Source: Moniliella sp. 'wahieum'
Taxonomy: Eukaryota
Length of the DNA: 64,000 bases
Direction: 5' to 3'
Assembly: GCA_003971905.1 (NCBI GenBank)
Contig: RSEE01000028.1
Coordinates: 558,001-622,000, forward strand
In this document: piece by piece, positions 906-62,752 of the stretch
How positions within the stretch are numbered: the stretch's first letter is position 1
Layout of the letters: every line of letters starts with the position of its first letter
Program-made: the position numbers and the translations under genes
The notes under the pieces: generated by a model
Seen by the model: only the letters and a program-made list of their open reading frames with translations
Told to the model about the DNA's origin: nothing
Databases searched by the model: none

Positions 906-2350
906 TATGCGTACTGCCCTCGCTTCCTGTACGCCCTAACAAAAGAGAGTTGCCCCACAAATTGATCGTCACCGAGAAAGAAAGGAGGGCCACACATAAC
1001 CATCGATTTGTCATCCAACCCACACCAACGCCGAAAATAATGTTTGTGTAGTAGCTGGGCTAAATCCCACTGGGCCGACGAGGCAACTATTGTTAAGGAG
1101 ATGAGAAACTATTGTTAAGGAGATGAGAGGCATCGGATAATCCTTTGAGGAGTGAGAAGCCACAAGCTTTAGCCATTGAATACTGCTGAAGGAGGAGTGG
1201 AATGGAGGATGTGGTTCTGAGGAGAGGTACAGGAGGCTATGAGAAGGGTAGGGCCTTATATAGACGAGGGTACCGCGGAGCTGAGGAAGCTTCCGGGCGG
1301 ATAAGAGGGGTGATGACTATCACGCAGGATGGCATGATTGGGGCATCGCCCCAAACATGTTGTGGCAAAAAGAACGAAGGGAAGACTGGAGAGTTTAGGT
1401 GATGAGACCTGGAGTCCTGATGCACTGATGATCCTCGAGGGTAATGCAATCGCACTGGTAATGGCGGCAGTCTAAGTCAGCCAGCAACGCCTACTTGGTA
1501 GTGCAGAGGAACATCAAACAGATACAGTCGCCACCAGGGCTAGTAGGCTGCGGAACAAAAGGAAAACACAGAAGCGAGAGAAACAACGCGGAGAACTCCT
1601 ATTACCCCTGGGGAGGGACTGAAGTGCCGTTGGCCAAAATTCACACGAGAACCACCCGCGATGGCTACATTGAGCGAGAAGACGAAAAGGCGAAGGAAGA
1701 GTACCAAGAACGGGACCATCGATCCGTCTCTCGCTTGTTTATTATTCTGAACCTCGTGTCCAGCCCCCCAAAACTCCACCTAGACACACCATACTAGAGT
1801 GCCACCAATGGCACTATAGGCGACTGCCAGGGAGGTTCGGCCAGAGGACAACAATAGAAAATGCATCGTCCGGGGTCTATCATTTTGAGCAAGTGTGCTG
1901 TGATCCCGATGCTGTGGTATAGTATACTATCGCTGATCCTGATGAAGCGACCTTTGCGGTTGTACTTAAAAACCATCCACGTTCGCGGTCTCTGTCAGAA
2001 CCAAGGCTATAGCGTACTGTATATTCTGTCTGCATTTCAAGCTTTTAGCACTTCTGAGCTTTGGTCAATGTTCGCCATCATATATGAGAACTGATTAATG
2101 ATTGGTGGTGGGTCTGTTGTATTATACTTGTATTTATAGGACAGCAGCATGTTGATGCCCCATCATCGGGTTCAGTCTGAGCCATTCTTCTACACGGCGG
2201 TCTCCCATGTCATCGTTTGGCTGATCTCGCACTCCCATTTCCAACTTCTTCTCGTCCCAAGAAGCGCTTAGCTCTTTCCCTGTGTTCTTCTGCTTTTTCG
2301 CACCGCCTGCCTCTGTTTTCTCGTCTTCCCAAGAACGATTGTTACACATC
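906..2350 (-). CDS. Possible fragmented membrane-protein gene, unidentified
   Basis: Several hydrophobic minus-strand peptides are separated by frame breaks, for example VPFLVLFLRLFVFSLNVAIAGG near 1640-1720 and TNIIFGVGVGWMTNRWLCVALLSFSVTINLWGNSLLLGAYRK near 910-1050. No family motif was recognised and the boundaries are guesses. Confidence 0.2.
1085..1128. repeat. Perfect 22-bp tandem duplication (AACTATTGTTAAGGAGATGAGA)x2
   Basis: Read directly at 1085-1106 and 1107-1128. Confidence 0.9.
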
Positions 2351-3874
2351 CCTTGACTACCGTATCACTCTGGTCTCCCTCGCCTTTAGCCCTGATTGCG
2401 ACTACTAGACCTCGGTTATCGGTACTGCGGTTTCCACGGCTAGACCTTGTGTACCTGAGAGGTCAATCACAACGGAAAAATCGTATGCACACAATAGGAG
2501 TGGAGTGAGACAGCGGTACTATTACGAATTGGAATCCGCCGGCTGTCGAGAACGCGGTAGACGTGCCAATGCCCTGGCCCGACGCGTCATGACGTGCATC
2601 AGGCAGTAATGCAGCGAGGGCAGAATCTCAGGCAGCCAACTATCGATCATACGTACTATGTGTCGTAAATCGTCCCCACAGCCCTATATAATTAACGGTT
2701 CTCACGTTTGCCGCTTATCGATTCACGTTTTAAAGCGTGTAAAAAACGTTAACGTGTTTAACCGACCCGAACGAGTCATTTTCGCACTATACAACAGTCA
2801 ACCCACGCACACGTACACCACCGAGAGGATAACTATGCAGACTACTATTATATGTGGGCCACAGCAGTGGGGAGTACGGTGAGTGGCGATGAGTACTGGG
2901 TACTCATCAGACTGAGTTCCTACCAACTCCGACTGCTAGATATCCTCGAAAAATGTGGAGCTGGCGCCGATGTACTGGTGGTTTTGCACTGGCCTTGAAG
3001 AGGATGTATAGCACGAGGGGCGGCGGCTGCTGATGAGATTATATATACCTCAGTTACCCCCCCCCCCCCCGTTGCCGTTTGTGAGAGAGTATAGTAGAAA
3101 GACTGTGTGTGGATGTGCAAGTGCCACATATCAAAGGGAACTTCTGCCATCTTCGTCTCTTGCATCATGTTGCATCATACTCCCTTGGGACACTAGTTGT
3201 CGGCAGGGTGGTGCTCGCATGGCGGCGGCTGGTTAGCCATGAGCGCTGGGCGTGCCATGGTGCGTAAGCACCATTAGTCGCGCCGTCACGCGCACCAACC
3301 TGTCGACTGCTCTCAGGCCGATGCTGGTCTCGATCGTCCGGCCCCACTGGAGAGACAAAATGGGTGGCGAGCACAGGCGCTGCGTGTTGGATGCATGTAC
3401 GTAATCACAGCGGCGATTAATGACGTCGGTGGCAGGCGGGCAGTTGCGCACGTTGGGCCTGGGGCGGGGAATATTGAGGGCGCCGCAGGGTCTGAGATGT
3501 GCCTGTTTCGATCGCCCGCACTGTTCACGTTGGGCAGCGTTGCTTGCTGGCCTTGCGAGTCGGCCGACTGGGAGCAGCAGACGTTGCCTGTGGGCGCCGA
3601 CACGCGCTCTACCGTCATCGCAACACCACAGCTCCACCTCCATTCACCCAGTACCTTGGCGCTGCTGAGGGTCTGGCTCCCTGGCCTTGCTGCCCTCTGC
3701 TGTCTCGCCCCTCGCCCCTCGCACCTCGCATCTGGCATCTGGCATCTGTGCACCGCGCATCCGACACCCGGCGTCTGTGCCATTGGGTTCTGTTCACTGG
3801 CCTCTGTCCACTGGGCTTTGCCTTCTGGCCGCCGACCTCTGGCTCGGAATTCCGCCTCTCCACCTCCATTCGCC

Positions 3875-5858
3875 ATGCACGGCTCAAGCGCCAGCGCCAG
3901 GTCAAGCTCCAGTCCTAGTCCTGGAAACGCTGCTGGCGCCACCAGCCCCAATACACTACTGCCCCCCATTGCCGCGCTCTTCCCTCCCCCTACTACGCAT
4001 CCGCCCCTTCTCGCTCGGTCCCCGTCCCCGTCGCCTATGGCCAACTCCGTCCATCATGCGGAATCAAGTCCCGTCGTACCATCTCACTCAATAACCCTTC
4101 CACCTCTAGCTCCGAGCGTGCTTCATTCACTCATTTGGTTCTCTGAGTTCCTGGCCCTCTCGGCCAGTAGCTTCTCGTCCTCGGCGTCACTCCCTGTACG
4201 CCCCAAGCTTAGTTCGGTCCGAACATCGAGTCCAAACGCGGCGAACTGGTCCAGTAATTCGTCTGAATTGCTGCAGCGTCCTGTATCTCGGAGCCATCTG
4301 GCTCCGCCTGTACCGGCTGATCAGCCTACGCCTGAATCCCTTCTGCTTAATGCTCCGGGATTATCCCCACATCAATCACTCACTGAATCCCCCCTTCCTG
4401 ATGCAACAGCAACCACAAATTCTAGTTCGGGTGAGGGCTACTCCAACTCTTTCAGGCTCAAGCGAATCCGCTTCCACTTTCCCCCCCGTCCACATACCGA
4501 ACAAGAGATTTATTTTTGCGGCGCAGCCTCAGCGAAGGGAACTGAGTACCAGTGCGCCTCCGCCCTTAATGCCCAGAGGATATCATCCTTCTGGCATCAA
4601 CCTCAGCGCCGTCGAGCAGCATGACCTCATTTCTCCCGAGGGAGGACTGTCTCAGCCTGTGTATCCGCCATCTGCAAGACCAAGGCTCTCTAACCCCACC
4701 CAGTACAGCCTAATTGGCCAGACGCAGAGTACATCTCACCCACATCGTCCACCATGCCGGCCTTCCCAAGGATTGGGGGTGCCTCTATCTCGTTCTGCTG
4801 GATCAAATTTGGAGCCTGACTCGACAAGGGGAGAGGAGAGGGAAGGCGGCGTTTGCCCCCCTAGACTCTTGTTCCCCGACGCCCCATGACCTCGTTGCCA
4901 TCTCAACATTCGGTCTCTTTGCCTAGCATGATGGCCACGCCAATCTCTCCCCCAACTCGCGCATCTCCCTCGACACAAATGCACCAGCGCCAACTGGTCT
5001 TCCCCTAAATGAAGAACCATTGCTGGGCCTGCAGCGTCTGACCCTCAGTCTTTATGGGTACGGGAACTCCCCGAACTCCCCATCAAACCACGTATCCGTC
5101 CCAGTCATCCAGGGGTCTTCCAGGACCTGACTTGAGGCCATCACCCTCCGGTCTCCACCTCTCTAAGAATTCTGGCACCACGACTGCAAGTGGTGAGCCC
5201 GATATGCTTCAGCCCAGCCAGACTGCTATGCACACCTCTATTTCGGGTCCTTCGGGGGGCTCAGATTCGGGTGGAAGAGGGGTATGAGCAACCTCGGACT
5301 GGGCGAACAACGAAGCGAGCCAGGCGAGGTGGAGGGAGGAACATGCATTCTAGCTCCTCTGCTACCTCCCTGCCTACTGGAGGGAAGAAAAAGCTAGGCC
5401 GGCCCCGCAACCAGTCGGGACCGGCAGCTGACCATCCTGTCAGGCCAAGATGGGGGAGGGGCCGGTGGGACGCGCTCGTCCGCGAGAAAAACGTCGCCCT
5501 CTGCCCCAGGCTCGTCCCAAGCTGAGATGGGAGCCGATCCAGCTGCTTCGGGTGACGGGGACAAGGAAGCAACCCCAACACCTGCGACTAGTATCTGCAC
5601 CTACCTCCACCCCTGACGGGAGCTTACTGTGGCACACACTGCAATCGTCTCTATGACCTAGTCCGCCACCGTCAGATCCATGCCCGAGACGAGCTAAGGG
5701 CGATCGAGTCAGGAGCCCTCGCCCCCGAGCAAGCGCTCATCTGGGGCAAAGAGGTAGATCCGGCCTCTTCAGTATCAACAAGGTATGGATGTGCGACTGT
5801 GGTAGCGTCTTCTCCCGCAAAGATGCTGCTGCGCCACAAACGGCTTCGGGGTCACTGA
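3875..5858 (+). CDS. C2H2 zinc-finger transcription factor, Rpn4-like fingers (frameshifted)
   Basis: A long Ser/Pro-rich N-terminus starts MHGSSASARSSSSP. Joining frames at 5590-5858 gives ICTYLHPDG.YCGTHCNRLYDLVRHRQIHARDE...WGKEVD...VWMCDCGSVFSRKDA.LRHKRLRGH*. The YDLxRH..IH and FSRKDALxRH motifs resemble Rpn4-type fingers. Confidence 0.75.
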
Positions 5859-7194
5859 TCATCGATCAGTACTCAGTTCAGTACCACGCGCCACCTGGCT
5901 TTACCAAGTTTACTGGCGCTGTACCGGCCGTTTCTGTGGTATGCCCATGCTTCCGTTTTGGCTTATTTACTGGTGTTACCTAAACGCCCTCAATCCCTCG
6001 CCGCTTGTGCCCATTGTAGTCCCTGTTGTCGCGTCTTCCTTCCCGTTCTCGCATTTTGGTTTTTCTTTCTGTCACGGCGGCTGCACTCAAGCTCAAGGCG
6101 CTCAAGGCGTTATCTATTTGCACAATGAAGCTCCCAACTGGAATACTCAGACTATGGGTATGTTTACCGGTGGGGTCTTTCCGGAAAGATGTCTCCAAGC
6201 AAGGTGGCCGGCCTGAAGCTTGAAGGCTGGCCTGATGGGTAGATGTGTTCCACGTTTACCGCGCCCAACCCGCTGTTCCTTCTAAGAACAGCCCCTAGAC
6301 GTATCGGAGTGTTGTGCATGCATGGGGGATATCTGGCATGATGTATAACTCGCATCATGATGCATGGGCAAGGAGTAGCAGAGCACAGGCCAGGACGGCT
6401 GCTATTATTTAAGGGGGTGTGGCACGCGCCCTCTGCCACAATATGAAAAATGGCAAAGTGAAAAGATTCCGTGAGGTTAGGTGGCGTAGCTATAATGGTT
6501 TTAGACGCCATCCCTTTTAGTTTTGGCTGCCTCCTGTCCGTTTCTTGGATGGCCGGCGGGGAGTGTTCCGACTGAGCACAGAGAGGAAAGGGGCGGGAAG
6601 AGGGGTAGACGCGGGTGGTGGAATGAGCTTCGGCGCTGCACCACCAAGCCTCGGGACGCCGGCACGTGCTGGATTGGAGGGACTGCCACTGCGAAACCAA
6701 CGCAGCCAGCCTTGCCGCCACCCACTCCTTTCCATTCACAATTAAGCAGTCGGCGCCGCTCCGACGTTTTAACGTTCAGTTCAACGTTCAACGTACGTTC
6801 AAGCTGAAAGCTCCAATACAAGCTTTCGCGGTTTGTCCCATTTCGAAATGTACGTGTGAATCTCTGCTTTTGCTTTCCTCCACCGCCACCCACCCACACT
6901 CTCCAAGTTGCCCGCATCCACACCCCCGCCCCCCCTCCAACTCTCACCCATCCACTAAATTGCGCTACTCCCAATGTACCGTACCCGTCTCCCTCGCGGG
7001 GCCGCGTCCCGCAGGTTTGATCATGTATGTATTGGTATCTCTCGGATCTGGTATCAGGGCTTTGGCGTGGGCCCCTGTGCAGGTTCTGGGCTTGTACCAT
7101 CAGGCACCCTAAGTTTGGTATAGGGGTGCTGCCCTTGCCGGCTTGGTGTGCGCTACTGACATATCTATTCTTGGTCTATTAGGTCACATTTAGC

Positions 7195-9788: not shown

Positions 9789-9791
9789 AAC

Positions 9792-15698: not shown

Positions 15699-15755
15699 TC
15701 GCGCGCGCGCGTCGGCCCTGCGCTCGTCTCTGTTCCCACCACCATCTCCTCTGCT

Positions 15756-17037: not shown

Positions 17038-17788
17038 GTGTGTGTCGTTTATACTCCAGTCCCCCGCTGATGAGGTCCCTGCCTTTGTTTCCACCCTTTT
17101 CACTGGTTCCCGCCTGTGTCCTTGTTGACTATTATCTTTTCGCCTGGGATGAGACACATCGCTATCCTGCGATCGCAACCAATCCTATCGGTAGGTATCA
17201 GGTCGACGACATCCTGCTCCCCTACTCGCATTTTTGCCAGACCTCAACGTACTACCCCCCTGTAGCTACAAAGGATATCCATTACCTCGGGTTCTTCGAG
17301 CGGTGGCAATTGGTGTTAGTACGAGGCCTCGGGACTCACTGTGGACTCGATCGCAAGCCAGCCTGAACACCAAAGTTTCCCCAATTAGGCCTTAGGTCAT
17401 ATTTGTTGCGTGAAAAGTGTCGTAGGAGTAAGGATATGATGCTGCCGCTTGCGATGAACTTCTTCCCGTTGCTTAGGTCTCTTCAGCCTGAGGCATTTTT
17501 CGTTACCGTGGCAGGAAACGGCGCATTCGATATACATATGCTGCCGATGAGCTCGAGCGAGGTAAGGCAACTGAAATCATTTTAAGGGAGCGGTGGTTTA
17601 AGCTCCCTGGAAACATCAAGTAGGACGGTAACGGCAACAACTGTAGTTCTTACTATGATGTAAAGTCAGCGCTAAGGCTCGGCACTCAGGCCAAGTCGAA
17701 GTTGAAGTCCGCAAATGGGAACATGCAATTTCACGATGCGAAAAGGTTGGCAGTAGCCCATCCGCAGTGGACCGAGCAGGCATCAAGT

Positions 17789-19203: not shown

Positions 19204-20349
19204 GCGCCTGTTACTGTCCCCAAGACCATAGGTCTAGCGGGCTTATGCATTTGACGGCCCCTTTCAGACTAAGAACGGGCGTCTTGGCTTTGCTTCTTCC
19301 TATGTCTCTGCTCTCTTTTATGGGCATCTCATCCAAAAATCTCGGTCCGCTTGCGCCGTTCCATGCCTATGCACCTTCATTGTTCGTGCACCTGTGAGAA
19401 TCGTAGGCAGCCTTCGTTTTCCGTACCCCCAATCAGTGTACCACTGACGAATTGGGCTTATGAGGCAATAGGAAGTCGCCAGGGCGATAGTAGATCAAGC
19501 TAGTTGAGAATATTACGAGGTGCTTGGATGGACTTAGGGGAACCGCCTGCTGTGGTTGATACTTGCGGTAACCGCTCAAGTACAGTGGACCCAGCTATGT
19601 GCCGCACTGATCGTCTTGACTGGATTGACTGTTACTGTGCAACATTGATCTCCCATCATGCATCAGCGCCTCTGCGGCGGATGGGCAACAACTGCGCGGG
19701 CGTGGCGAAGGCCTGTTGGGCATCTCTCTAGCACCTTAGTATTTGATTCATGCATAAATCGTACTCCGGTACAGGGAAGGGGTTGATAGCGCCCGTATCC
19801 TCCCTTAGGCCTTAGACCTTACTGTAACTGTACTACTGCCAGTGGTTGACCGGTCTTTTACTATCCCCCATCTCTCGGGATGCCCATTATCAACATTTCG
19901 ACACATCAGAGAATGGCTCGTCATGACACCGCCATGGCCACACAGCAGGGCCACACCAGTCCCCCTCTCCAGAGGCCGTCCACATGGTCTGGGGCGAGAA
20001 CTACGATGCACATGATGCATGATGATGATGATGATCATGGGTTCACCACATGTTCACGCGCCAAGCTTCAGAAAACATAGGCTTTTCTCGACACGATCTC
20101 ATCGCCATATACAATTCATGTGCTGCATGACGCATGACGCCATGACGTTGAGCACTGGACGATCCGCAGTTGTTACCAACTCATCTTGCCTCTCCGGTCC
20201 ATGCAGTCTTTTGCTCCCTCCCACTACCCCCTTTGCAGCACAAAGGGTGTCAGCCAGTCTACTCCTCGATTGACGCTCTCATTCCTCCTTCTTTCCACCG
20301 ACGTTCTTCGCGTTGTCCTCTTGACGCTTGTTGGCTCGCTCTCCACACC

Positions 20350-22475: not shown

Positions 22476-23522
22476 CGTGTCGGGTAGAAGCAGGTGGTGG
22501 ATGAGAACCGAAGCGAGGAGCTAGCTGCCTTGCTATTCGTCCGCCTCGATTCGACGCGAGCGCCCAACGAGCCACATGTCATGCCCGTCGCGAAACTGCC
22601 CGCCAGGACGCCTGTGTAACGGAGCTGCCGCACCACGCCAGTGCAAAAGCTCCACTGCCCTTGTCCCTGATGCGGATGTGTGCCCCTGTGCCTGAGCTTG
22701 AAGCTTGAAGAATAAGGCGTGACACGGGACGCGTGAAGCGTGACGCCGCGTTCGAGTGTCTGCAGCATAGGCGCGTGCTGCGAGAAAAATGTAATTTCAG
22801 CCATGGTTCCCTGCGCCGAGCTCGCCGAGCTTTGCGCCGCCTGAACGAAGCGAAGCTGGAAATGGGACGCCGCTCGCAGGCTGACTCCCCTCACCCCCCC
22901 CCCCCCGCCCCAGGCTGCATCCGTGCTCCGCGCTCGCCGCTCACTAGGCTCACTCCCGCCTCATCGAATTGGGATACGGGCGAATGAAGGGCCACCAGGA
23001 GCAGCCCCGTGGCGACGACAACGGACTAGATCACATGTAGTTCTGCTACACGCGAGGCATGAGCGAATCTGATTGTCATAGCACTGCTGCTATTGCTGGC
23101 TAACAAAGGTTTGGAAGGATGGCGCTCTTGGATGGGAATATGGGAGAATGCAGGCGCGGGTGGGTAGCTGAGAGAGAGCCGGATGCAGTTTCTTGTTACA
23201 CTTAATAGTTGGTATCTTGCAAACTCCGGACATGGTCCCATCTTTGACCCGTTCCAAGTCGGGAGGAGAGACACGACGAATCGGCTTTGAGAAACGTGTG
23301 CTCACGTTAGCATACCGACATACCAACTTATCGGCGTGTCCCGCCCAGAAATCGGCTCTGGAAGTAGCCTTGCCCATCGTCGCATGGCTGCAGTACGCAA
23401 CAGCCACACTTCGCTGAGGCTCAACGGTCAACTTGAACGGTCAAAGGTTCTAGCAAGTGACAGTCACTAGTCATCGCCAACGTAGCAGGGTAGGAGTGAC
23501 ATTGGTGCTACCCATTATTCCA

Positions 23523-40430: not shown

Positions 40431-40657
40431 CACCAAGGACACAACACTCACCCGCCCCCCCCCCCTCTCACCCCCTCCATCAAAGTACCAGCGCTCAACA
40501 TCCTATCGAGTACCTGCACCAACCAAAACAGAGCAAGGAACAGCAAAACAAATGAAGTGGGACGCTCGGACCGTCGCCGAGACAAAATGGGATGCGAAAT
40601 CGTTGTTCTAACGAGGCGGTCGGACCTACCGCCCAAAGTAAATGGGTGCCGCACTCG

Positions 40658-41475: not shown

Positions 41476-42303
41476 GGTCAAGCGAGGGTCGACGTGTCAA
41501 CTGTCCAAGGAGCTGTTGGTTGCAACCGACGATCATCTCACTCCGCCCTCTTAACCCATCAAAGGCGCTGACTTGCGCCGACGTTGAGCAAGTGGAGAGC
41601 TGGGCACTAAGCGTTAGGTAAGCAACCGCTTGTATTTGACACGTGACACGGTCAGGCTTGAAGTGAAGCTTGAAGCTTGATTGGGCACATCACATGTGAC
41701 ACCTAAATGTGATGTTGAGTGATGTTGGTGCCGACGACAGATTCGAGACGTCATCGAGTCATACATCGGACTGATGCATCATGCATCATGATGGGCGTCA
41801 TGGATCGCGATGCCGCCGCCAGAGGAGCGACAGGTGGTGCTGGCTGGCGGGGACGATGCAGAACCGCATACGGCCCACAGCCTGCCCGACAGGGACAGCT
41901 GTTGGTTGGGCCTGCTACCTGCTGGGCTCGCGGTCGGTAGCAACTGCGGCCGCCCTGTTCGATGGTGCGGTGCTCGGGGCCTCCACGTCGGAAGACTCGG
42001 ACTCAGCACGCGCAGTGTGGTACTCAGCCCAGCGCTGAGTTCGAGCAGGTTGGTACTTTCGGGTGCTGGTGGCACGCAACGTCCATTACGCGTTGGTACG
42101 GCCCAACTAGCAACTCGCACCTGGTAACTGGGAATCGACGATACTCAGAACTCATTAATCAGCGCCAGTTGTTCAACGTTCAAGCATCAGCTCATCGCAG
42201 CCCAGCTGCTCTTAGAAAAGTGTACTCAGCTCTGTCTCTTGGCTGCAACTCCAGCCCCAGCCCATCCTCTTCTCGTCCAACCCCCTCTGCCCTGTCCCTC
42301 GCC

Positions 42304-45071: not shown

Positions 45072-47420
45072 GCACTCAGCACTCAGCACTGAGTACCGAG
45101 CACTGAGAAAGTTTAGGATTCTCGCCTAGCATGTGTACGTCAACACATACGTGTCGCGTCCCTAACCCAGCTCATTCATCGCTCGCAGTCTTAGGACCTC
45201 TTCAAAGCTGCCGCCTTCGACCTCAGGTCCTCAGGTCCTCAGGAGCTCTCTGGCCAGGGATAGATGATTACGGATTGCATATGACATGTGTATCCTCCAC
45301 GGTCTACGTTCCATGTTCGTGCCTCTCGTTTTGCTGTGGTTATTATAACCCTGGCCCGAGGACCACCGACACGGTTCTCCTGCGTTTTGTCCTTTGCCCT
45401 TCCCCTCATGTCTTCCCACACTGCACCATGCACCGAATTATGCAGGTAGGCTTGCTTCTTCACCAGCTTCGCCGTCAGCGTTCCAACAATCGTGTTCAAC
45501 ATTCGTTCAACAATCGTTCAACGGGGACGTTCCTAACCGTAGTGCCCTCATCCCACTTCCGTTCCTTCTTTTTTACCGCCGGAAGATGTCGGGTGCGGCC
45601 GCTTCTAGCTTCAAGCTTCAAGCTTCACCCACTTCAAGCTTGACCAACTTCAAGCTTCAAGCTTCACCTCACCAATCCTCTTCCTTTGCCGATGTTTTCT
45701 GTCGCCGTTTTAGGCTCTTTTCGCGGTTTGTTTTTTTGTTTTTTTGTTGGGTCAATGTGTAATGTATCACCAAAACTTCGATGAGTGCGGGGACGTGTTG
45801 CTGTGGAAGCGGGATGATCGATGATCGATGATCTATGGTCGGAGCTTGAAGGATGTCTTCAAGTGGTCGCGGATGTCGTTATCAATTGGGAAGAGTCGAG
45901 GGACCGCGAGTTCCCAGGCCTAAGGTCTATCGATCTAAGGCCGAGAACGGCAAAAGGTAACGGCCGAGGTGTGCGAGATCTGTGACATGTGAGAGACTTG
46001 AGGGCCTGCGATCATCTCGATCGTAGACCAACCAGGCTATGACACAATGTACTTTCCGCGTAGAGCCTGTAGCATCTGAGATCTGAGAGCCGTGTGACAC
46101 ATGTGACAATGTGAAGCTTCAAGCTCCAAGAGCTTCAAGCACTTCAAGCTTCAAGCTTAGCTCTTTCAGCGCTCTAGCAGGCGACTACGCATATGGTGTG
46201 TGACGCACGAGATATGATGCAGATGGCCAGAGAGGTGTCTGTCTCGAGCTGTTGGACCGTGGTCTCTGCATGAAACAGACCATGGTTTTGGTTGGTGTTT
46301 GTGTTTACATTCTGGTTTACCCCATTGACCCAACTAGCGTTCCCGGGACCCGAGAGAGAACTCCGACGTGCCAGGATGTTTGGCCCTCGCTCTGGCCACT
46401 GTACATGTACGTGGATTGAATATTGAATATTGAACCGACCACAACTCGGGCCTCAGGCCTCCCTCAACAGCTCTTCAGGCTCGCGCTCAACATGCCCAAC
46501 ATGACTCCCAAGCTTTCCTTTCGAAGTTCCGTCGTGCGGTCTCCTCGCTGTGGGGGGTCAGCATTATGATGCAATGATGCGTGATGCACGATGTGTGATG
46601 CGCCAATGATAGAATAGGCTTGCTGTGCCCTCTGTGTCCTCTGTGATACAGAGCAGGTGAGCGCATCGAGGTTGTTGGGTGGGCCCTTCTGCCTGTTGCG
46701 TAGCACAGCAACCCCACTCAATATTCAATGTCCTACTTGAATCAGCCAGGTCAAGCTTCAAGGTGCTCCCAGATCTGTGGGGCACACAGCTCTGTTCTCT
46801 TACCCCAGGGCCAATGATTCAGAGCTGTCTGTCTGCGATGGATCCTATGTTGTGGGGAGAGTCAGGGAGCCGGCGAACGGCCGAGCGGCCCACCTGATGC
46901 CATGCGCTCTAAGATCTAGTACGCGCCGGAAGGATGTGGCAAAAGGGGCGGGGCATACTACAAACAAGAGGGGGTGGCAACATGCAACCCAGTGCGAGAA
47001 CTAGCAGTGGAGACTGTGCGTATATAAAACACGTAGCGGGGGAGTTACTAGTTACTAGTTACTAGTTCCTGAGTGAGGATTGTGTACACTGAAGAATGCT
47101 TTGCGTACAAGTTGAGTACCGAGTCTGAGGACCTCCCCCTGGAGCACTTGCTTATTGGGAAAGCGCACGCCCCTCCTCGATCCCTTCCCCCATCCACGCC
47201 TTGCATGGGCGATACGTCGGCGACTGTGATATGCGTCGTCACATCGTGATTAAGGTGATTGCTGATTGCCCAGACAGCAAATTGGTCAGCGATCGAAGCA
47301 TAAATTGGGGCTTTTAGATAGCAGGCACCAGACCACCCTGGCCACTGACGCAGGGCAGGCCAACGTTGGATATACGTTGATACGTTGAATATTGAATACG
47401 GCTGGCTACGCACTATGTAC
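45061..47420. repeat. Intergenic island dense in TNA-[palindrome]-TNA period-7 elements
   Basis: AGCT arrays at 45607-45666 and 46112-46160, TCGA at 45815, CATG at 45983, GATC at 46077, ATAT at 46417 and 47386, GGCC at 46449, CTAG at 47045. Confidence 0.85.
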
Positions 47421-49709: not shown

Positions 49710-50024
49710 TCAAGAGTCCCTTCAAGCTTCTTCAAGCTTCACTAGTCATTGATTGAGACTCAGGATGATATATGATACTCCAGCGCCCGATCGCCACACA
49801 CACAAGTCAAGGTGTCTTGGCTTGCTACTTGTTCCCCCATTTTTCTTGGATTACTGTTTTTAATGCCTGTTCCCAACCGTTATTCGCGTTATTTTTACTT
49901 TGGCCTGCCTATCTTTCTTGCCTACCTTGCATCCATCCCCGTATCCCGTATCCCGTTTATCTCTCACTTACACCATCGGCGTGGTACACGTGGTACATGT
50001 TACTTTTCGGTTTCCCCACCATCG

Positions 50025-50669: not shown

Positions 50670-52862
50670 TCACCTTACCTTAGGCCTTAGGCCTTTAGGG
50701 GTGCATGGAACAGACGACAATGTCTGGTAGCTTGCCACATTAAGCCGCCGCCGGATCGGGGTCAGCGGCGCGACAGGGATCGAGGCACGGGGCTGTTGGT
50801 CCCGTGTCATGGCCTGCAACGAACGCAACAACGTATCCGACCACAGCGGTTCCGCCGCATCGTTCGACTCGGACTGGCGGAACAGGTCCGCGAGCGGGTC
50901 GGTGCCATCCTGCGGCGCACGACGTAGTTCCTCCGAACGGCGCAGACCTAATTTGGTCCATACCTGGTCCAAGGCTTGCACTAGGTGGTGCACGTCGGCC
51001 GAGGTATGGCCCGGAGTCGGGGTGATGCGCAGACGTTCGTGACCCTTGGGCACAGTGGGGAAGTTGATTGGTAACGTAGCAGCCGTGTTCCTCGAGTAAC
51101 AGATCCGATGCCGCCTTGGCCTTGGCCGCATCGCCAACGAGAACAGGCACAATGTGCGAAGGGTTGTGTTCGAGTGGAATGCCAGCCTGGCTTAGCAGAC
51201 GAACCGTTTCGCGCGTACGGACTTGCTGCGCAATGCGCGACTCGTTGCTTTCCATCAACACTTCGACGCCGTCCGGGCTCCGGTAACCACATGCGGCGGA
51301 AGCGTCGTACTAAAGATAAACTGAGGCGCATAGGAACGAATCATGTCGATAAACCGGTTGGATCCAGCCACGTATCCACCCACGTTCCCGTACGCCTTGC
51401 CCAACGTGCCTGTGATGATGTCAATCCGATCCATCAGCGTCGGCTTCTCCCCCGGCTGGGCACCACCGCGCACCTGCACATCCCAATCGAGATGTTCAGC
51501 AACACCAGCCCCACGCGGACCGTACATCCCACCGCGTGCACCTCGTCCAAAACGTTAACGCCCCGTACTTCTCTGCCAGCTCAATCGTCTTTTCAATGTG
51601 ACCCACAGTACCCGACATGGAGTACACCGATTCAAACGCAATTAGCTTCGGCACATCAATCGGGAGAGAAGCCAGTTTGGCTTCCAGGTCAGCCATATCG
51701 TTGTGCTTGTAGATCAACTTCTTGGAACGACCATGGCGGATGCCGTTGATCATACTCGCATGGTTCATCTCATCCGACAAATCACACAGTCCGGAAGCTT
51801 GGATCCCAAGAAGCCCAGCGTCGCATCGTTGGCAGCATAGCAGGAACCAAAGACCAAAGCGCCATCCTTACGATGCAACTGCGCCAACCGTTCTTCCAGA
51901 TCCTCCACCGCACTGTTGTGCCCGGCAATGTTGCGCGTACCACCGGCACCAGCTCCGTACTTGAACAAGGATTCTTGCATTGCCGCCAAGGCACGAGGAT
52001 GACGGGACATGTTCTGGTAGTCGTTCGAACACCACACTGTGATCTCATACTCCTCGTTTTGAAGATGGCCACGAGGCGCGACCAGCGAGACGATTGATGT
52101 TGTTAAAGTACCGGTACGACTTGTCGGTATGCTTGGCAGAGAGTTGGTTATGATAAAACAGTTCATAGTCGAATCCCGGCGCTTGCTTCAGCTTCGGAGC
52201 CGGGATCGGCCCGAGCCCCGAACCAGGCTTGCGCACTTGCTTCACCACCGCACGACGACGAGCAGCAGCGAGCTGGGCTTTGGCCTGGGCTGCCGCCTCG
52301 TCGGCCGGTTGAAGCGGGGCTTTCCCTTCGAGCGTCGCTTGCTCCACCGCGGCTGCCGCAGCGACGTGCGGACACTTGGACGCATCGCCATGGCCATTGG
52401 TCAGCACACCCTGCGTAGCGTGGATGCGTGACAGCTCGTCCGAGGGCGAGTCTTGGTCCAGGGGCGACGCTTGGCCAGCATGAGCCGAGGTGGACATGCT
52501 GCGGGCCTGGCCAGCGCCGGCACCAGCAAAGGGGCACCCCGACGCACGCGGCGAGGCGACCTTGTTGCTCTTGGCAAAAATGAGCGCATTGAGCGAGCCG
52601 CCGTACACAGCCGATCCAGCCGCAACGCTCATGGCAATCTCCTCGTGGCCCGGGATGGACGCGAGGTCGTACTGGCTCAGGTCAATCTGGTCACGGATGG
52701 CAGCCGACATGACGGGCAGCGCTGGGCGCTGACGGCGAGACGGGTGGGGCCGCCCGGGATGAGGGCGGTGGTAGACATGGCACGCAGCTGGGCCATGGAG
52801 GTGTGGCCGAGGAACGGGCAGGAAGTGCGCAGCGAGCGCAGCGCATTCATGCTGCGGTCCAT
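50670..52862 (-). CDS. HEM1: 5-aminolevulinate synthase, mitochondrial (frameshifted)
   Basis: [119 protein letters not shown] (PLP lysine) and [21 protein letters not shown]. Confidence 0.97.
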
Positions 52863-55143
52863 CGTGGAGGTGGGGGTGGTGGGGGAGCGAGAGAGAGGGT
52901 GCAAGGGTGGCCGAGAAGAACCGGAGGGCGCTGGGGGGGTGCGGAGAAAAAGTGAATTGAAACAAAGCACCACGCTTCCCCAACACGGAGCAGGCAGCAG
53001 ACGGGCAGTGTGCTGCTAGTGGCGCGGAGGCAGTGGCCGGGTGGCTCGTGGGGGACCGGTGATCGATGACCGAGCCTCGCCGAAAGGCACAAGGGCAGTG
53101 GCGAGGCGCGTGCGGTTACTAATGGGCACAAGCGCCGCCCCGACACGGTCTCTGTCTGGGCCGGGTCGCCGCGGCGGCTGAAAAGGACCGGAGGCGGGGC
53201 AGGCGCCATGCCCGCCACTGAGTAACTGAGTACAGACATCTGACAGCCACTAGTCACATCTCCGCTGAGTCCATTTCGTCTTGATGATCCATTCGGCTCG
53301 CCTCGCCACTGCCTGGCCGCGACACGCGACACCCGTCTTCCCTTGGCCTGATTCGACTCGATCCTTCCGGCCTTCGTCTGTCCTTGGCCAGTTACCGGTT
53401 ACTAAAACTGGCCTGTGACATGTGAGCCCCCAGTTTCTCGCTCCTCCGGCTCAGCCATAGTACGTACAACATACCCACACCCCATGGCACTGCATAATAA
53501 CTAACACCAACAAAGCCCACTCTAGTCACTCTAGCCACTGATATAACAGATCAAGTCGATGAGGTCACCCCGCTCGCCACATGCCATCTTGATGGCTTTG
53601 CATCTTTGCTTTTCACATTTGCTTGAGTGGCAGAGTTTGGTTACTGAGGGGCTCAATCTCGCTCTCATCACCGACACGCCCCAGAGTATAGCTGGTCGTT
53701 GACGGATCCGCGATCTCCTCCTGGTCCGCACGCTTCTCACCCTGCCCCCTCCGACGTATCTGCCGTGAGACCTTGTACAAAGGTGCGGTGAGGATGCCTC
53801 GCAGTCGTCCCGCTAACACAGTCTACTAGCACTCACCAAAGTGTGCCTGAGACTGCCCCACGTCTCTCTGATGTGGCTGAAAGACGGTCCCTCGAGGATC
53901 AAAAGGTGTGAGACGCGTGCGGAAAACCTGCTAACATCGCTTCGTCGTACATCGTGTACTGTACCACGGATCTCAAGACTGTGATTGGAAGATCCATACA
54001 GGTGGCTCTCCATGCCGCCCATTGCCGATACTATCGTCATTTCTCTACCCGTGTAGTGTATCTTTGACTTCCTTTGTGGCACTTGTTGGCTCCTCTCCCT
54101 TCTCGTCTCCCTGATACGAGGATGTCGGCAAAGATCTGCACTTGAGCTTAATTGGGAACGAAAACGATAGAGGGGAAAAGCAAGGTGAAAAAGGCCCTAC
54201 AATACAGTAATGAAATGCTTCTCGTGCTTCTCGAGGGTAGAAGCAGTGTACCGTGCCCATGACGGAGGAGAGAGAGGGAAAAAGTGGAGGCCACAGGCAT
54301 AGTATACCGTACGAGTGCGATGTGGAGGCGCATATGCTAGTTCCTGGTGTAAAGAGACTGCTTATAGCACACTTTTTCATACTCAATGAGTGTTCCCGGC
54401 TCCTGTTGGTGAAAGGACCATAGCATTATACGCGCCTGCTTCTAGTTCCCCCCGCTTTCCTCTAAAGTGGGTCGGTAAGAAACTCGCCCCATCATCACAA
54501 CTTGAACCGGATACGAGTCCGACCTTGTATACATGCTATACCCGTGCAATCACAACTTATGTGCATGATGGCGGGTTAAGCGCCGCCGACTGAAAATAGT
54601 GTCATAGAACAGTTTGGGAGTGGGGGGGGGTATCCGATAGAGAGAGATAACTAATATATGTTTAACCAGTGACTCGCCAATCATTTATCGACCCCATGAG
54701 ATATGGTAGAGGGAAGAGTGAGAGTGAGGTCTGCAGCTCAAAATGCTCAATCCTAAAAGCTAAAAATTAAGGTCTTTCACCATGCCGATCATCAATCGTG
54801 GAAACGTGATTCAGTGGACAACAGGGGGAGGAAAAGGAAATCGGTGCTCTTCTGGAACGAAGGGAAGGGAAGTGAGGACAAGAGAGCTGGTGGGACAAGA
54901 GGTAACGGTACAGAGTATTTCTACTTCACGCCGGTCGGCAAGTACTCATCCAACAACCGGGTGCATCAAAGAGGATCAGGGAATGAGAGACGAACAAAGA
55001 CAAACGAAACAAGCGTCAAGGGAGCCAGGGACGTGAGAAAGGGAAGAAAAACGGTGCTAGGCGGAGGCGGGTCAAGAAACGTGTGCTTTTAGTACGGTAG
55101 GTCAATGGAAAAAAGGAGTCCTGATGGTCGTTGGTCCATCAGC

Positions 55144-57007: not shown

Positions 57008-59059
57008 GGCACAGCCAGACCTGTGGTGGGTAGGGTGTGGGTGTAAGTGTGTTGGGTGGGTGTGCGGAGCAATGGAGCGTGCTCAACACGCGGGGACGGC
57101 CGCGGCAGTGAGTAGGGGGGTAGTAGGGGACAAGGCGAGCGGTGGCGAGGACAGGATGAATGGATTGACTTGGTGGTCAAGCGCCGTGAGAAGGATGGGA
57201 GGAGCTGGAGGGGCGAAGAAATGGGCAAGCGGGGACGAGGATGGGGTGGGGGGGTAAACGGAAGCGCCGCCGCAAGGGGCGAAACGCCTATGGGAGCTTC
57301 AAGCTTCAAGCTTGATTTTCTTCGCACGTGCGGGGTTGGTGGGGACACTGGCCCTGCGCGCTCGCGCACGCGCCCCTGCTGCTGAAACCGTACCGAGTCG
57401 GATGTATTGACTATCGATTGTCTTCTCCCAACCTCCGAGGTCCAACGTCCAAAAACTCACTTGGACACCCACCAACGCCGAAGCGATATTCCAAAAGCTC
57501 AGTGCGATCAGCGATCAACTGATCGTTCGACTCGAGGTCTTCTCGGGCTTTGGACGTTGCACGTTGAAGTGACTGCTGGACTGCTGAGTACCCCCGCTGA
57601 CTAGTAACTAGGTAACTCGCACTCTTCAGGGTGACTGCGAGTGCTACTTTTTGGCGCCACGCCCACAGACAGACAGACAGCGACTAGCGAGATCTGAGAA
57701 TGTCCCAACACTGCGACGGAGATTGGGGAGATCCCAGGGATGCATGATGCATAGCCGATGATCTGGATGATCATTCGATCATTAATTCATTCACCACAAT
57801 TGCCACTTGGGAATCTAAGCCTCAGATCTCAGACTGGGATCTCAGATGTGATTCATGTGACATGTGACATGTTTGCGGGGCCATAACGCAGAAAGAGTAC
57901 CAGACCCCACAGCGCATCTGCGTTGTGGCGCACGTGACGTGGAGAAGATAGCGTCGTTCAACGTTCACGCGTTCACATGCGTTCCGTGTGCTCAGTACTC
58001 AGTAGGTGCCAAGCTCCAACGGCAGAAGATGGATAGGGTTGCCACACCCACCTACGCATGCTTTAGTAGTCTTAGTAGTCACTTGAGCTCCCTCCGCCAC
58101 TCCCCTCCTATGTTGGCACAGAAGCCGCGCCATGCAGAAGCGTCGGCGTGGCACACAGTTGGCGGGGGTGTATCCATGTGACTTGCGCCGCTGTATGCCA
58201 ACAAGGAAATCACTTTGGTCTTCTCCGATCTCACCCAGCAATGCGTATGCAGCCAGCAGTCATCGACCGTGGGGGTGAGCAAAAAACCACAGGAATCCCA
58301 GTAGTACTCCCACTATACTACGTCCTGTTAATGCGGTTGAGAGAGCTCTACGGAATCGACAGGCTGCATCATCTGTAGGGCAGAAAAGAAAGAGAGAGAA
58401 AACTAGAGAGGGGGGGAGGGCGTAATACATACAACACAAAGTGGTCCCTCGCACTCCTGTGATGGTTCAACAAAACGCCTTGGGAAAATGGCGTGGAGGA
58501 GTGTCAAAGAGGGTTAATTTCGTAGCAAGATAGTCCAGTCTGTTTCTCTCTGAAAACGAGAGAGCGATCTGAAACGTAAGTCCATCAGGGGAGCAGAAGT
58601 CCTTTGGCATTCGCCGTCGGTAGAGTATTCCTGAGGCAGGGGGGTGGGATATGGGAAAAACGGATTGGTATGGGGAGAGGAAGCAAGTAGGAAAAGGAAG
58701 GGCGTGCAATGGGTCGCTCAAACACACCCGATATCATAGATCCACAGCAGGTAAAATGGATCTCCATAACATACGTGACCGTATACTCATACAGCGTGCG
58801 GGGATTGGCAAATGAAGAGGGTGATGGAAGGGGCAATACGGGCAGGGGGGCAGGGGTTCTAAGAAGGGTGGGTCATCGTGATCGACATGAGATGGTCTCC
58901 AATCAAAAAGAGAAAGGAGACTGGGGGGAATAACGATCGCGGTAGGAGCCCGATAAGAAAACACTGGCAGAGGCTGGAGAAAAACGACGTAAACAGGTGG
59001 ATAGTGGGAGGGGAAGTTTGATGCCAGAGCAGGTTGTCCGTGATGCTCCTCTTTTCCCT

Positions 59060-60835
59060 TTACACCCACCCCTGAGACCTTCCACAAGCAGCCATCAGCC
59101 CGGTTCCGCGAGGGGTTCTTAGATCGCTTCCCATGAAGGGTGCGGTGATGGGGGTAGATATTGGTCTCGACAGATGTACCATCCGCCGCTTGAACAAACA
59201 AGGTGGGTACTTGGTGAGCCATGGGCATAGTTGGAAGGAACATGCCGGGTTCAGTTGCTGCTTCCCAAGAGACGGACGAGGTAGAAGGTAAGAGATGCTC
59301 TTCACCTGAAAGGCTCATCTCGTTGTGAACATGGGCCGCGGCAGAGTAGGCCGGATTGTGCTCTGTGAACGAGCCAGAGTTGATCGAATGGGATGACCCT
59401 CGAGCTCTTCCAGGAAAAGATTCAGTGACATCACTCGAATAACTGGGCGTATCAGCCTGAACAAGCAAGACAAAAGCAGAATGTGTCAGATTCAATCATA
59501 TCACATGTCACAGTTCATTCCCTTTTGGGCTCCTGGCAAACCATAAAGAGAAGAAGGCTGTTGAGGAGAACGAAGTAACACACTGACCTGACGAGGCATA
59601 AATTCCTGATGATGGATCCAATCCCCTAATTTTGTTCAAGTGGATAGGCGGGAGGGAGTGTTCCAAGTGCAGAAGTCTCCGGACCCCAAAGCATAGAAGA
59701 AGTACGGATATCCGCATCGTCCATTATGGGCAATGGAGACGGCACCAATGATTGAAGGGGGGAATGATCTTGACCGACACACCACTCGATTGGAACCGAG
59801 GAGGAGGAGATCGAAGTAAGAGTGGGACCTTGTCGCTCCACGAGCGCCCCTTGATGTGGGGAGAATGTGGGCCACTTGCGGGATATGCCGGTAAGGACGA
59901 GAGCCAGGCGGGGACGTGAGAAGGGGGAGGAGGCGGATGGTGGAAGCCTTCTAGAGACTCGGTATGGCCCACCAAAGGTGGAAATGTAGAGGATGATGAT
60001 GAGGGTGCAGTGTTGAGGAACCAGCCTCGAAACCGATCGCCAATGAGTTGCCACCCAATACACGTTTCTCTCTTCCGGAAGAGAATAGATCAGTTCCAGG
60101 CGGATGATAGAGGTTGGGATTCTGCATCCTCATAGCAGCCTCAGCATCGGGCAGTGGGGAGTCTAGTCCAGCCCCAGAAGAAATGGTAAGATTCATAAGG
60201 TCAATGCCCTGAAGAAGAGGAACTTGGTTTGTTATCTCTCCATCAGGGTAAGAGAAGGATGCAGATGAACTGGCCGCGGCACTTGCACTGGCTTCCGCAG
60301 AGTACGTCTGCCATACACAGAGGTTAGGGACATCTAGCAAGAAAACCAAAAAGGAAAAGAAACGACTCTATTACTGATCACGGCAGAACCAAGGTGCTGA
60401 TCGAGTAACAGCCGGAAGGGTGGGACGGAAGCAGGGAAGGGGGGATGAGGGCGGATCGGACGTACACATTCCAGTCCTTTCTTCTCGCAGCGAGCGCATG
60501 GCCGTCCCAAAGAGCATTGCCTTTGCCTTGACGCACAGGACACAGCTCTTTGACGAGGGATATGGGGTTTGCGAGCCGAGATCTTTTCGCGCTTCATGTC
60601 GGCGCAAGAGATCATGACGAGTAAATCTTGAAGCAGTTGGGGCAAACGTGCTGTTGGTTATTGTGTGAAGGGGGAGGACGAGAAGGTTCCAGTGGAGGAG
60701 GGGGGGTGGGTCGCCCATGAGGCTGGCTCGCACTGTGCCGGGACCGAGTTTTGCGTTGAGGAGGGCGTACAAGGAACAAGGCGAAACAGTATGAGGTTGG
60801 ACAGTGCGAAAAGCGTGGACCGTCGTTTTACTCAT
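59060..60835 (-). CDS. Transcription factor with one C2H2-type finger followed by a Zn(II)2Cys6 cluster; intron 60308-60465; frameshifted; 3' end approximate
   Basis: Joining frames gives QHVCPNC.K.FTRHDLLRRHEARK, then SCVLCVKAK.QCSLGRPCARCEKKGLEC|TY. The intron reads GTACGT..CTAAC..GCAG. Confidence 0.8.
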
Positions 60836-62752
60836 GCAGACAGCACCTTCTTCACGCTAGGGGCGGTGTAGGGAGTGGCCAAAGAAGAGGCAAAACGACT
60901 GAGAAACCGGAACACAGGCGCGCGACGTTTGTAGTGGTGGCAAAGGGGTGGGTTGGTGCAGCGAAGGATGGCAGGCAAACAGGCGTGGACAGTTGAAGTT
61001 CAAACATTCAACGTTCAATGTATACCAAATGCAGCGTTGAATATTGACTGCCATACCCTGTGGGATACATAAGCACAAAAAGAGGTATCTGACCTACAGC
61101 AGCTTACGTAGTGTGCGGTGTCCCCTCTGTTAAAAACTACAAGTGATGGCGCATAGCCTTTGGTTCGTCCAAACTCTCAACAAGTGTTGTGGTGTTCAAC
61201 ACGCGGACAAAAGCCTTCGAGGCCGCAGCCTGGCCTCGGCAAAGAAATTGTCGAGCGAAAACAATCCACACCTTGTGCAGCCATGGCGAATGGAAGTGCT
61301 CTCACATGTTCTCTCTGAAGCTTCTTGTGGCAAAGCAGATCTACTGAATGTCCAGAGGCGTCGTTCGCTTTTTGTTCTTCCTCTATCTGCTGCCATCGGG
61401 ACGAGGACAGGGTGTTCTAGCAGGGTGTGGGGTCGAATTCGGAAGTGCTGGGAGTGGAGCGGGTAAAGGGGTATGGCGAATGGGAGGGTCACATGCATCA
61501 CACCGGCCACACCCGGGGAATGTTCCTGAACACGCGGGTGGCTAGCATAGCACGAGTGCTGTTTTGCAATCGTTCCTTCCCTTATCGATTATCATTCTCA
61601 CGCGTCACGTTCCTCAGGGGCTGAGCGCTGGGCCTCTCAGTGCTGGAGCTGAGTACTTAGCTGAGTACCGGACGAGAGCCCCAGCGCCTCGGCCCAGGCG
61701 CTCAGCACAGGGCGGCTTTGCGCGTGCTGAGTGGAGACGAGGCGGCTGCTCAGCCTGAGCGCCTGAGCGCTCTCGTGCCTCAGCAGCCGTCGGAGACCAG
61801 ACGACCGACGTTGGACTCCGTCGTGTTTCACCGCGCCGCAAGTCCGCGTACTGCCGCCCAACTCCGCCGACCGAGGGAGGCACACACGGCAGAGAGCGTT
61901 GATCGTTTCAAAAACGGAGTGGATACTTCCGCCTTCAACGTTTGCACGTGGAACTTCAACTTCAACTGCATGGTACACACCGAGCGCGTTCTCATTTCAC
62001 GCGTCACGGGTTCGGCGATGCTCGACGGCCGATGGACTGGGTCTCGCCACGCAAGAGCGCCACCTCGGTTAGTGTTGTGCCAATCCAACGACTCAACGCG
62101 CAATCTTTGAATGGATGATGATTACGTGGAACCCGAGTTCGCATATGTCCTGCAAGAGGTCGCTTTGGGTTTACCGCCGATATATCCGAGCATACTCACG
62201 TTCAGAATGGCTGGGAAGAGTGAGGCCGATTCAATGGCATTAGACCCCTGCCACTGTGGCTCCACTGCCGCTATGTCTACGTCCCAAAGAGTGTTCCGCG
62301 ATCTATATCTTCCACCTTTTCCATCCCAAGGCATTCTATTTGAAAGCCATATAATCCAAAAGGAGATAATGTGTATTGCGTGGTACAAAAAAACGGCCAC
62401 AAAAAGGTGAGAATCACCGGCCTCTCACCACCGAAACCCAAAGACACAAAAAGAGGGAAGAGGCAAATTTCCCTATGCTTGCATCACATGAAAAGTGTGG
62501 CAAAAAAGTGGTGGGAGGGCCTTGTCGTAGCAGAAACGAGGGTAGGGTATCGGGTAACGGGTATTCCAAAAACGTGGGACTCAACATTTATACCCGTGAT
62601 TCCACATCCGTCATCGCCCTCAAAAGGATGGATGGGATCTGAGCGTCTCAAAACAATGTCGGCGGGTATGGGCTGAAGAAGGGAAGCCAAGAAACCGACG
62701 GTGCTTGGGGGAGGGAAGTAGGGGAGAAAGAGTCAGAAATTGAAGGAAGAGC

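Follow-up and report, generated by a model that had tools for sequence, protein, structure and literature searches.

The stretch of DNA analysed here, hereafter the window, comprises 64 kb (56% G+C) from an intron-rich fungus, Moniliella sp. 'wahieum' (assembly GCA_003971905.1, contig RSEE01000028.1, positions 558,001 to 622,000 of the forward strand); its subject of interest is a large set of short arrays in which TNA trinucleotides alternate with 4-bp palindromes. Segments of open reading frames (ORFs) in the window carry Pfam domains of ordinary housekeeping type: longin SNARE, aminotransferase, CDP-diglyceride synthase, fungal Zn2Cys6, BCAS2, metacaspase, an HMG box, ribosomal proteins, and, in four pieces, hexokinase. 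A hexokinase exon is closest to basidiomycete proteins, with no match above 82%, which makes the fungus a basidiomycete; its best named matches are from Ustilaginomycotina (Tilletiaria anomala, 80%; Violaceomyces palustris, 78%; Pseudozyma flocculosa, 77%).

The motif TNA, 4-bp palindrome, TNA, with the same N on both sides, occurs 74 times in the window vs. 2.55 expected (expected counts for the window are means over its dinucleotide shuffles, 100 for the motif and 30 for period-7 runs). Counts are lower when the second N is complementary to the first (7 vs. 2.64) or is another base (8 vs. 3.58), and non-palindromic 4-bp cores between same-N TNAs are near expectation (51 vs. 40.15). Palindromic cores are thereby enriched over non-palindromic ones, as anticipated by an earlier note on this DNA; its figure of roughly 10 single units per 64 kb by chance agrees with the shuffles (8.8, for any N), and all 16 arrays that it quoted as examples are present at their positions. 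Among the 16 possible X-N-Y flank types, strong enrichment is confined to TNA, the next being CNA (15 vs. 3.6) and CNT (10 vs. 3.5). There are 50 exact tandem runs of period 7 with a length of 14 bp or more, vs. a mean of 3.4 in shuffles; in 28 of these 50 a rotation of the unit is an odd palindrome (0.27 expected), centred on TNA in 25 cases (26 by a second routine), on GNC in two, and on CNG in one. The regularity is real and far beyond chance.

The 74 same-N motifs group into 60 arrays, about one per kb, or 60 per 2,751 TNA (about 2% of the TNA trinucleotides in the window). None of the 60 lies in Pfam-supported ORF segments (11,002 bp, 17.2% of the window), where uniform placement would put 10.3, in keeping with the earlier claim that the elements lie outside coding sequence. 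The same note counted 14 of the 16 possible 4-bp palindromes as cores, with AATT and TATA missing; AATT is indeed absent, but TATA is present at 49766, so that 15 of the 16 are in use. Core usage tracks the background frequency of TNAxy (x and y being any bases) to within about 3-fold, and N is C or G in 49 arrays and A or T in 11, against a window background of 1990 to 761. With both N and the cores near background, T and A alone are specified.

The lengths of period-7 runs around the 10-bp motif define the unit more closely. They peak at 12 bp (26 of 63 runs), with four runs of 10 bp and two of 11 bp, and a second peak lies at 19 bp, that is, 12 + 7. The 10-bp motif by itself predicts about 10 bp and a duplicated 7-mer predicts at least 14 bp, so the unit is a 12-mer, TNAxy + y'x' + TNAxy (primes denoting complements), in which the two copies of a 5-base direct repeat enclose the reverse complement of bases 4 and 5 of that repeat. 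This 12-mer occurs 89 times on both strands vs. 0.28 in shuffles, and among the 16 pairs of bases at its positions 1 and 3 only T.A stands out (next C.T, 7 vs. 0.34). Correspondingly, the outer flank dinucleotide equals the adjacent core half in 51 of the 60 arrays (right flank in 19, left in 16, both in 16), whereas chance gives about 12%. The palindrome is not pre-existing; it is made by the event, templated from the flank of an original TNAxy within abTNAxy. Because the core is copied from the flank, any palindrome is allowed and core usage follows the TNAxy background. The insertion itself is 7 bp long: a direct copy of TNA and two flank bases, plus two reverse-complement flank bases.

Arrays with three TNAs (n = 14) indicate which flank is copied, since three of them contain two different cores. 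The array at 5857-5877, GATCATCGATCAGTACTCAGT, has TCA with core TCGA and then GTAC, the left core being the palindrome of the left flank dinucleotide (GA) and the right core that of the right (GT), with an implied original of GATCAGT. The array at 26365-26385 (TGA with GCGC, then TGCA) is built in the same way, each core corresponding to its own outer flank; in the third, at 49730-49748 (TCA with AGCT, then CTAG), the left flank matches and the right is one base off. Because each core matches its own outer flank in two of these arrays, either flank of one TNA can serve as the copied source. The share of 3/14 lies near the one-quarter that would be predicted for a second event taking a random TNA and a random flank.

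Variant forms cluster around the 12-mer. Reverse-complement inserts of 0, 1, 2, 3, and 4 nt are observed 13, 18, 89, 2, and 1 times, respectively, vs. 5.6, 1.5, 0.28, 0.1, and 0 expected. Most 1-nt cases derive from a hexamer array, CGCTGA (9.7 copies, 28424-28480); it can be parsed as TGACG plus one base, iterated, which is the 1-nt-insert form of the TNA rule, and could reflect serial events or a plain microsatellite. The 0-nt cases are spacer-less 5-bp duplications, TNAxyTNAxy, and 6 of the 13 abut palindromic arrays. Motifs with complementary N are perfect 10-bp palindromes, of which six of seven also match one flank, consistent with longer backward copies. Twelve-mers that break one of the nine constraints number 90 vs. 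8.3 expected, some of them being edge windows of arrays; imperfect forms are about as many as perfect ones (90 vs. 89), which suggests scars of many ages. The un-copied half-site is AG in 1 of 35 cases, and the copied half-site has a mild preference for AG.

In the catalogue that follows, arrays are written as trinucleotide/core, and a flank is said to match when its outer dinucleotide equals the adjacent half of the core. Arrays with a doubled unit are TTA/GGCC at 29072-29088, which matches neither flank; TGA/CGCG at 29498-29522, which matches both and is preceded by a spacer-less 5-bp duplication of TGACG; TGA/TGCA at 29641-29659 (left flank); TAA/CCGG at 32701-32721 (both); TCA/AGCT at 32816-32834 (right); TGA/AGCT at 41659-41680, preceded by a spacer-less 5-bp duplication of TGAAG; TCA/AGCT at 45609-45627 (left) and again at 45648-45673 (left), the latter followed by a spacer-less 5-bp duplication of TCACC; TGA/TCGA at 45813-45833 (both); and TGA/ATAT at 46415-46433 (left). 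The longest array, TTA/CTAG at 47043-47067, is a 25-bp period-7 run that matches both flanks. Complementary-N arrays are TTA/GCGC/TAA at 32670-32683 (left flank), a perfect 10-bp palindrome read as a longer hairpin-derived copy; TCA/CATG/TGA at 41688-41701 (right); a variant at 41770-41790 that is followed by a TCA/TGCA unit, with matching flanks; TCA/AGCT/TGA at 45632-45645 (left); and TGA/AGCT/TCA at 46110-46123 (right). The TCA/AGCT array at 57297-57317 matches both flanks and continues into a complementary-N variant.

Single-unit arrays that match both flanks are TCA/ACGT at 6779-6792, adjoined at 6774 by a 5-bp duplication; TTA/GGCC at 50673-50695, adjoined by a spacer-less 5-bp duplication; TGA/TGCA at 20011-20024; TGA/AGCT at 22697-22710 and 29799-29812; TGA/GATC at 46075-46088; TCA/AGCT at 46142-46155; and TGA/CATG at 57856-57869. 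The left flank is matched by TCA/TGCA at 19654-19665, TTA/GGCC at 19803-19814, TCA/CTAG at 23462-23473, TGA/AGCT at 26419-26430, TCA/TCGA at 28733-28744, TAA/GGCC at 28791-28802, TCA/AGCT at 32734-32745, TCA/ACGT at 42171-42182 and 57956-57967, and TGA/CATG at 45981-45992 and 53414-53425. The right flank is matched by TGA/TTAA at 2092-2103, TGA/AGCT at 6214-6225, TTA/GGCC at 17385-17396, TTA/CATG at 28603-28614, TTA/ACGT at 28816-28827, TGA/GGCC at 29881-29892, 30944-30955, and 32535-32546, TCA/ATAT at 46718-46729, TCA/AGCT at 46751-46762, TGA/ATAT at 47386-47397, TGA/TATA at 49766-49777, TCA/GATC at 57822-57833, TCA/GTAC at 57992-58003, TCA/CATG at 59501-59512, TTA/TCGA at 61582-61593, and TCA/CGCG at 61598-61609 and 61997-62008. 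Neither flank matches in TCA/AGCT at 32141-32150, TGA/CGCG at 40049-40058, TCA/TTAA at 42152-42161, TGA/TCGA at 53060-53069, and TGA/ATAT at 61038-61047, nor in TTA/CCGG at 53392-53401 and TCA/ACGT at 61008-61017, which agree with their flanks in one base per side.

The window holds several other repeats. Adjoining the TAA/CCGG array, a nested palindromic block at 32665-32690 consists of 2.1 copies of the 13-bp unit GCTAAGGCTTAGC, and the several inverted GCTAAG copies within it suggest longer hairpin-derived copies. Just upstream of the densest cluster of arrays, an 11-bp repeat (CGTTCAACAAT, 3.7 copies, 45479-45522) contains TCAAC half-units. A perfect 14-bp tandem array at 40356-40435 (CCATCGACCATTGA, 4.8 copies), embedded in 11.4 copies of a 7-bp unit, departs from the TNA-palindrome rule. 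On the minus strand, an open frame of 517 codons (38135-39685) lacks a Pfam match and is hexamer-rich (TGCGGT, 18.7 copies, 39054-39165); it is probably a low-complexity coding region. For an ORF of 376 amino acids beside the densest cluster, relatives were sought in metagenome contigs, and none of 153 pattern matches was confirmed.

The same grammar is found in metagenomic contigs, in which a scan with one 19-base array from the window gave at least 121 loci. Among the matches listed, 17 loci hold further arrays with other cores, two of which are compound in the predicted way (L083, L093). In 426 kb of DNA from the listed loci (a mixed set, counted after removal of the seeded arrays and of four near-duplicate loci), the T.A 12-mer is present 44 times vs. 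5.05 expected, the highest of the 16 classes, several others being raised too; of 44 arrays in this DNA, 31 match a flank. Six loci (L072, L068, L019, L024, L036, and L044) are eukaryotic-looking, with split genes, and L068 is agaricomycete-like (best named match Thelephora terrestris, 64%). Other seeded loci are bacterial, such as L034 and L051, or are so judged by ORF layout only (L017, L055, and L056), and these may represent a different phenomenon. On L051 (259-566), a bacterial-looking contig with DUF5686 and CarboxypepD_reg domains, intergenic TCAAGCT and GCCTTAG units are each followed by the same 8 bases; these repeats may belong to a bacterial heptamer-repeat phenomenon rather than to fungal scars. 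Alignments of homologous metagenome contigs revealed one difference of a 7-bp unit and otherwise unrelated indels: L046 (near position 620) and L074 (in reverse), whose longest matched segment is about 88% alike, are set apart by exactly one such unit at the edge of an AAGCTTC array. The grammar is probably not peculiar to one species and is visible in contigs of other basidiomycetes.

A reverse-complement copy centred exactly on a broken end typifies a covalently closed hairpin nicked off-centre, the added bases being termed P nucleotides. The inserted bases of 51 of the 60 arrays are of this kind, being the reverse complement of the adjoining flank; the target bases persist on either side of the joint in direct orientation (TNAxy repeated at 7-bp spacing, with the same N), and the insert-length spectrum, which peaks at 2 nt, resembles that of hairpin opening. 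On this basis, and with confidence a little better than even, the arrays are interpreted as footprints left by the excision of one or several cut-and-paste DNA transposons that make a 7-bp, TNA-centred duplication and leave hairpin-capped flanks. Such footprints, of a hairpin-forming transposase, were one alternative offered in the earlier note, and with flank-templated cores in 51/60 arrays they fit the anatomy best. The element would insert at abTNAxy by a 7-bp staggered cut centred on N, so that the 7 bp would be duplicated on either side. On excision, the transposase would close each flank as a perfect hairpin, and a host nuclease would nick each hairpin 2 nt from its tip, giving self-complementary 4-nt 3' overhangs (xyy'x' on the left, b'a'ab on the right), with the duplex parts ending at ...abTNA and beginning at TNAxy.... 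Ligation would then join one overhang to the recessed 5' end on the opposite side of the break, and the other overhang would be lost. The product would be abTNA-xyy'x'-TNAxy or its mirror, abTNA-b'a'ab-TNAxy, always 7 bp longer than the empty site; repeated cycles at one spot would add further 7-bp units, and trimming of the overhang would yield the rarer 0- and 1-nt forms. Joints that retain both overhangs (TNA-palindrome-palindrome-TNA) are represented in the window by one candidate (0.09 expected), the flanks of which do not fit. We infer the hairpins, the nick position, a duplication of 7 bp rather than 5 bp, and the transposon itself from these products. Three other geometries, worked on paper, do not yield the 12-mer: flank hairpins on a 3-bp TNA duplication, a 5-bp duplication of the symmetric form x'TNAx, and an odd-centred hairpin of the 8-bp hAT type.

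Excision scars with P nucleotides are a kind of event already known. Ac/Ds footprints are explained by hairpin-capped flanks that are opened off-centre and then rejoined through end joining, and RAG/Artemis processing involves perfect hairpins and 2-nt P additions. The arrays resemble the former in that both duplication copies are kept with a short reverse-complement flank copy at the joint, and they resemble RAG and Transib in that the pattern in the window implies hairpins that are perfect and even-centred, with P additions of 2 nt. Flank hairpins are reported for hAT, Transib, RAG, and the MULE Muta1 (PMC5499845), and Ac/Ds footprints in yeasts are described as palindromic P-nucleotide insertions with few predominant products, as for excision in Candida albicans (PMC5873905). 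Ac/Ds, however, makes an 8-bp duplication, and its palindromes are odd-centred on the complement of the element-adjacent base (PMC5873905); the window arrays have period 7, a palindrome with an even centre (between y and y'), a TNA-centred target, and one dominant product class, and their cores therefore do not share the odd-centred palindrome of hAT. The period of 7 also differs from the usual 8 bp of hAT, for which variants of 5, 6, and 7 bp are described, including an hAT7 group in rusts (PMC12730594). Transib differs in making a 5-bp duplication at GC-rich sites (PMC1131882), whereas in the window arrays TNA takes a central place only under a 7-bp duplication; the 12-mer contains a 5-bp repeat, but TNA lies at its edge, not at its centre as in a centre-symmetric 5-bp duplication of Transib. 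Transib targets are odd palindromes, such as cCASTGg, symmetric about the duplication centre (PMC1131882), a symmetry that supports TNA at the centre of a 7-bp duplication and not at the edge of a 5-bp one.

The sole fungal families with 7-bp duplications found in the literature searched are Kyakuja and hAT7. Kyakuja, of the KDZ superfamily, has CA..TG termini without inverted repeats and is recorded from five orders of Agaricomycotina, and hAT7 from rust fungi (Pucciniales); in the same source, neither is reported in Ustilaginomycotina, the group closest to the fungus of the window (PMC12730594). There is no KDZ domain among the 289 window ORF segments, and no Kyakuja or hAT7 element was found in the window. 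The comparison with these two families is one of duplication length, in which the 7 bp of Kyakuja agrees with the inferred stagger. In Cryptococcus, the duplications made by KDZ elements are of 8 bp, or of 4 to 8 bp (PMC11343200; PMC12810828). Elements with a 3-bp duplication bear on another suggestion of the earlier note, a PIF/Harbinger-type transposase with a TWA or TNA target: Tc4 cuts C|TNA|G, with TNA as the duplicated trinucleotide (bioRxiv 10.1101/2023.11.06.565293), and Harbinger duplicates 3 bp (PMC12730594); Harbinger-type elements, too, are known to duplicate TNA. A 3-bp duplication with residues of the element ends predicts cores independent of the flank, which the 51/60 flank-copied cores contradict. 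A TNA-centred 7-bp geometry combined with an even-centred palindrome, a near-uniform outcome, a density of about 1/kb, and a spread among basidiomycetes was not found described in the literature searched, which excluded most subscription journals and Repbase Reports.

A number of observations weigh against excision footprints of a transposon with a 7-bp duplication. No resident element with inverted ends and an nnTNAnn 7-bp duplication was found in the 64-kb window, and nnTNAnn-flanked elements in the 121 metagenome loci listed were array artefacts only. There is no transposase domain among the 289 window ORF segments of at least 90 amino acids, nor among 93 ORFs from 11 metagenome loci. Inverted repeats of at least 16 nt form 32 pairs in the window, of which the clearest are arrays pairing with one another, the rest being weak and scattered. 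At a few tens of copies per genome, 64 kb would probably hold no resident element. For footprints, a density of about one per kb is high and calls either for an element that stayed very active over a long time or for heavy reuse of sites, and the outcome is more uniform than in published Ac/Ds footprints. Plain 7-bp duplications without a palindrome occur three times in the TNA-centred register (0.16 expected), and the other registers are alike (two to three each); the un-copied half-site (AG in 1/35) does not share the AG preference of the copied half. These two tests do not discriminate, so that the choice of 7 bp rests on arguments from symmetry; a duplication of 7 bp is nevertheless held more likely than one of 5 bp.

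The main rival, and the more novel one, dispenses with a conventional resident transposon while keeping the same end chemistry: a host-encoded (e.g., domesticated) hairpin-forming nuclease, or another form of break repair at TNA, would add the 7 bp directly, as an endogenous sequence-programmed indel process. The very high density, the highly uniform outcome, the presence of the grammar in distant basidiomycete lineages, and the lack of any transposon or transposase seen in 64 kb of window or about 500 kb of listed metagenome loci all favour it; a resident element is, however, unexpected in 64 kb anyway at low copy number. Both broken ends need the same TNA bases before joining, which an insertion-excision cycle supplies and a simple nuclease does not, and snap-back or fill-in from a 3-nt TNA overhang could not be made, by reasoning, to yield the product. 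We know of no enzyme that adds such 7-bp inserts directly, and regard this explanation as unlikely. Somewhat better than the preceding explanation, though still tentative, is the possibility that the scars are no by-products of an ordinary resident transposon and instead mark an undescribed machine: a new group of transposons whose staggered cleavage spans 7 bp centred on TNA and leaves perfect, RAG-like hairpins on the flanks, or a form of such a transposon domesticated by the host. Footprints of an element with a 5-bp duplication TNAxy (Transib/RAG or hAT5 type), with two P nucleotides from one hairpin only, are quite improbable. The 12-mer read literally is a 5-bp repeat, 2 nt, and a 5-bp repeat; spacer-less TNAxyTNAxy occurs 13 times vs. 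5.6 expected, with 6/13 abutting palindromic arrays, and the un-copied flank lacks a preference, as this explanation would have it. The target would be lopsided, however, its fixed T and A falling at positions 1 and 3, in contrast to the known Transib targets, which are symmetric about their centre (PMC1131882). Moreover, P nucleotides from the TNA end, which equal treatment of the hairpins should give, are not enriched (one exclusive case vs. 0.28), and among fungi Transib was found only in soybean rust in a 2005 study (PMC1131882).

Explanations without a sequence-specific nuclease fare worse. Template-switch mutations are well known at quasi-palindromes, and a polymerase that switched after TNAxy, copied y'x'T of the nascent strand backwards, and returned at NAxy would formally produce the 12-mer; the earlier note had favoured such iterated fold-back or template-switch synthesis by an unknown palindrome-writing enzyme. 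Fold-back would alternate N and its complement, so the constancy of N (the same in 74 motifs, complementary in 7) contradicts it, and the commonest structure (12 bp, or 1.7 units, in 26 of 63 runs) is not symmetric. Polymerase error offers no basis for strict T and A at fixed positions (1 of 16 flank types), the implied empty site abTNAxy has no inverted repeat to drive a switch, and the insert-length spectrum peaks sharply at 2 nt. Replication template switching is accordingly rated very improbable, and no unknown palindrome-writing enzyme is needed. The least credible origin, with only a slight chance, is one of three: selected sites for a dimeric protein, slippage of heptamer microsatellites, or assembly artefact. 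The elements do lie in intergenic, probably promoter, DNA, but a protein reading TNA half-sites, as the earlier note also proposed, cannot account for 15 of 16 palindromes at near-background frequencies, at which no protein reads the cores. Slippage may aid the growth of arrays, as whole 7-bp units distinguish the arrays of L046 from those of L074, a related metagenome contig; the commonest form, at 1.7 units, is too short to start it, since slippage grows from two or more existing units, non-palindromic heptamer repeats are no commoner than 6- or 8-mers relative to shuffles, and unit sequence is constrained (palindromic in 28 of 50 period-7 runs vs. 0.27 expected). An assembly artefact is made unlikely by the same rule in independent metagenome assemblies.

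If the arrays are indeed transposon excision footprints, about one site per kb, and about 2% of the TNA trinucleotides in the window, would record a past transposon visit, which to our knowledge would place this among the densest footprint records known. A simple sequence rule could then be used to count past cut-and-paste activity where fungal elements are rare or gone, and the pattern would point to an enzyme or element for which both the target, nnTNAnn, and the offset of hairpin opening are defined. Promoters would also owe to its activity much of their supply of 7-bp indels and new palindromic motifs. Should the scars instead be the work of an undescribed machine, it would rank as a dominant, sequence-programmed origin of indels in the promoters of basidiomycetes, where it would keep making palindromes of 6 to 10 bp.

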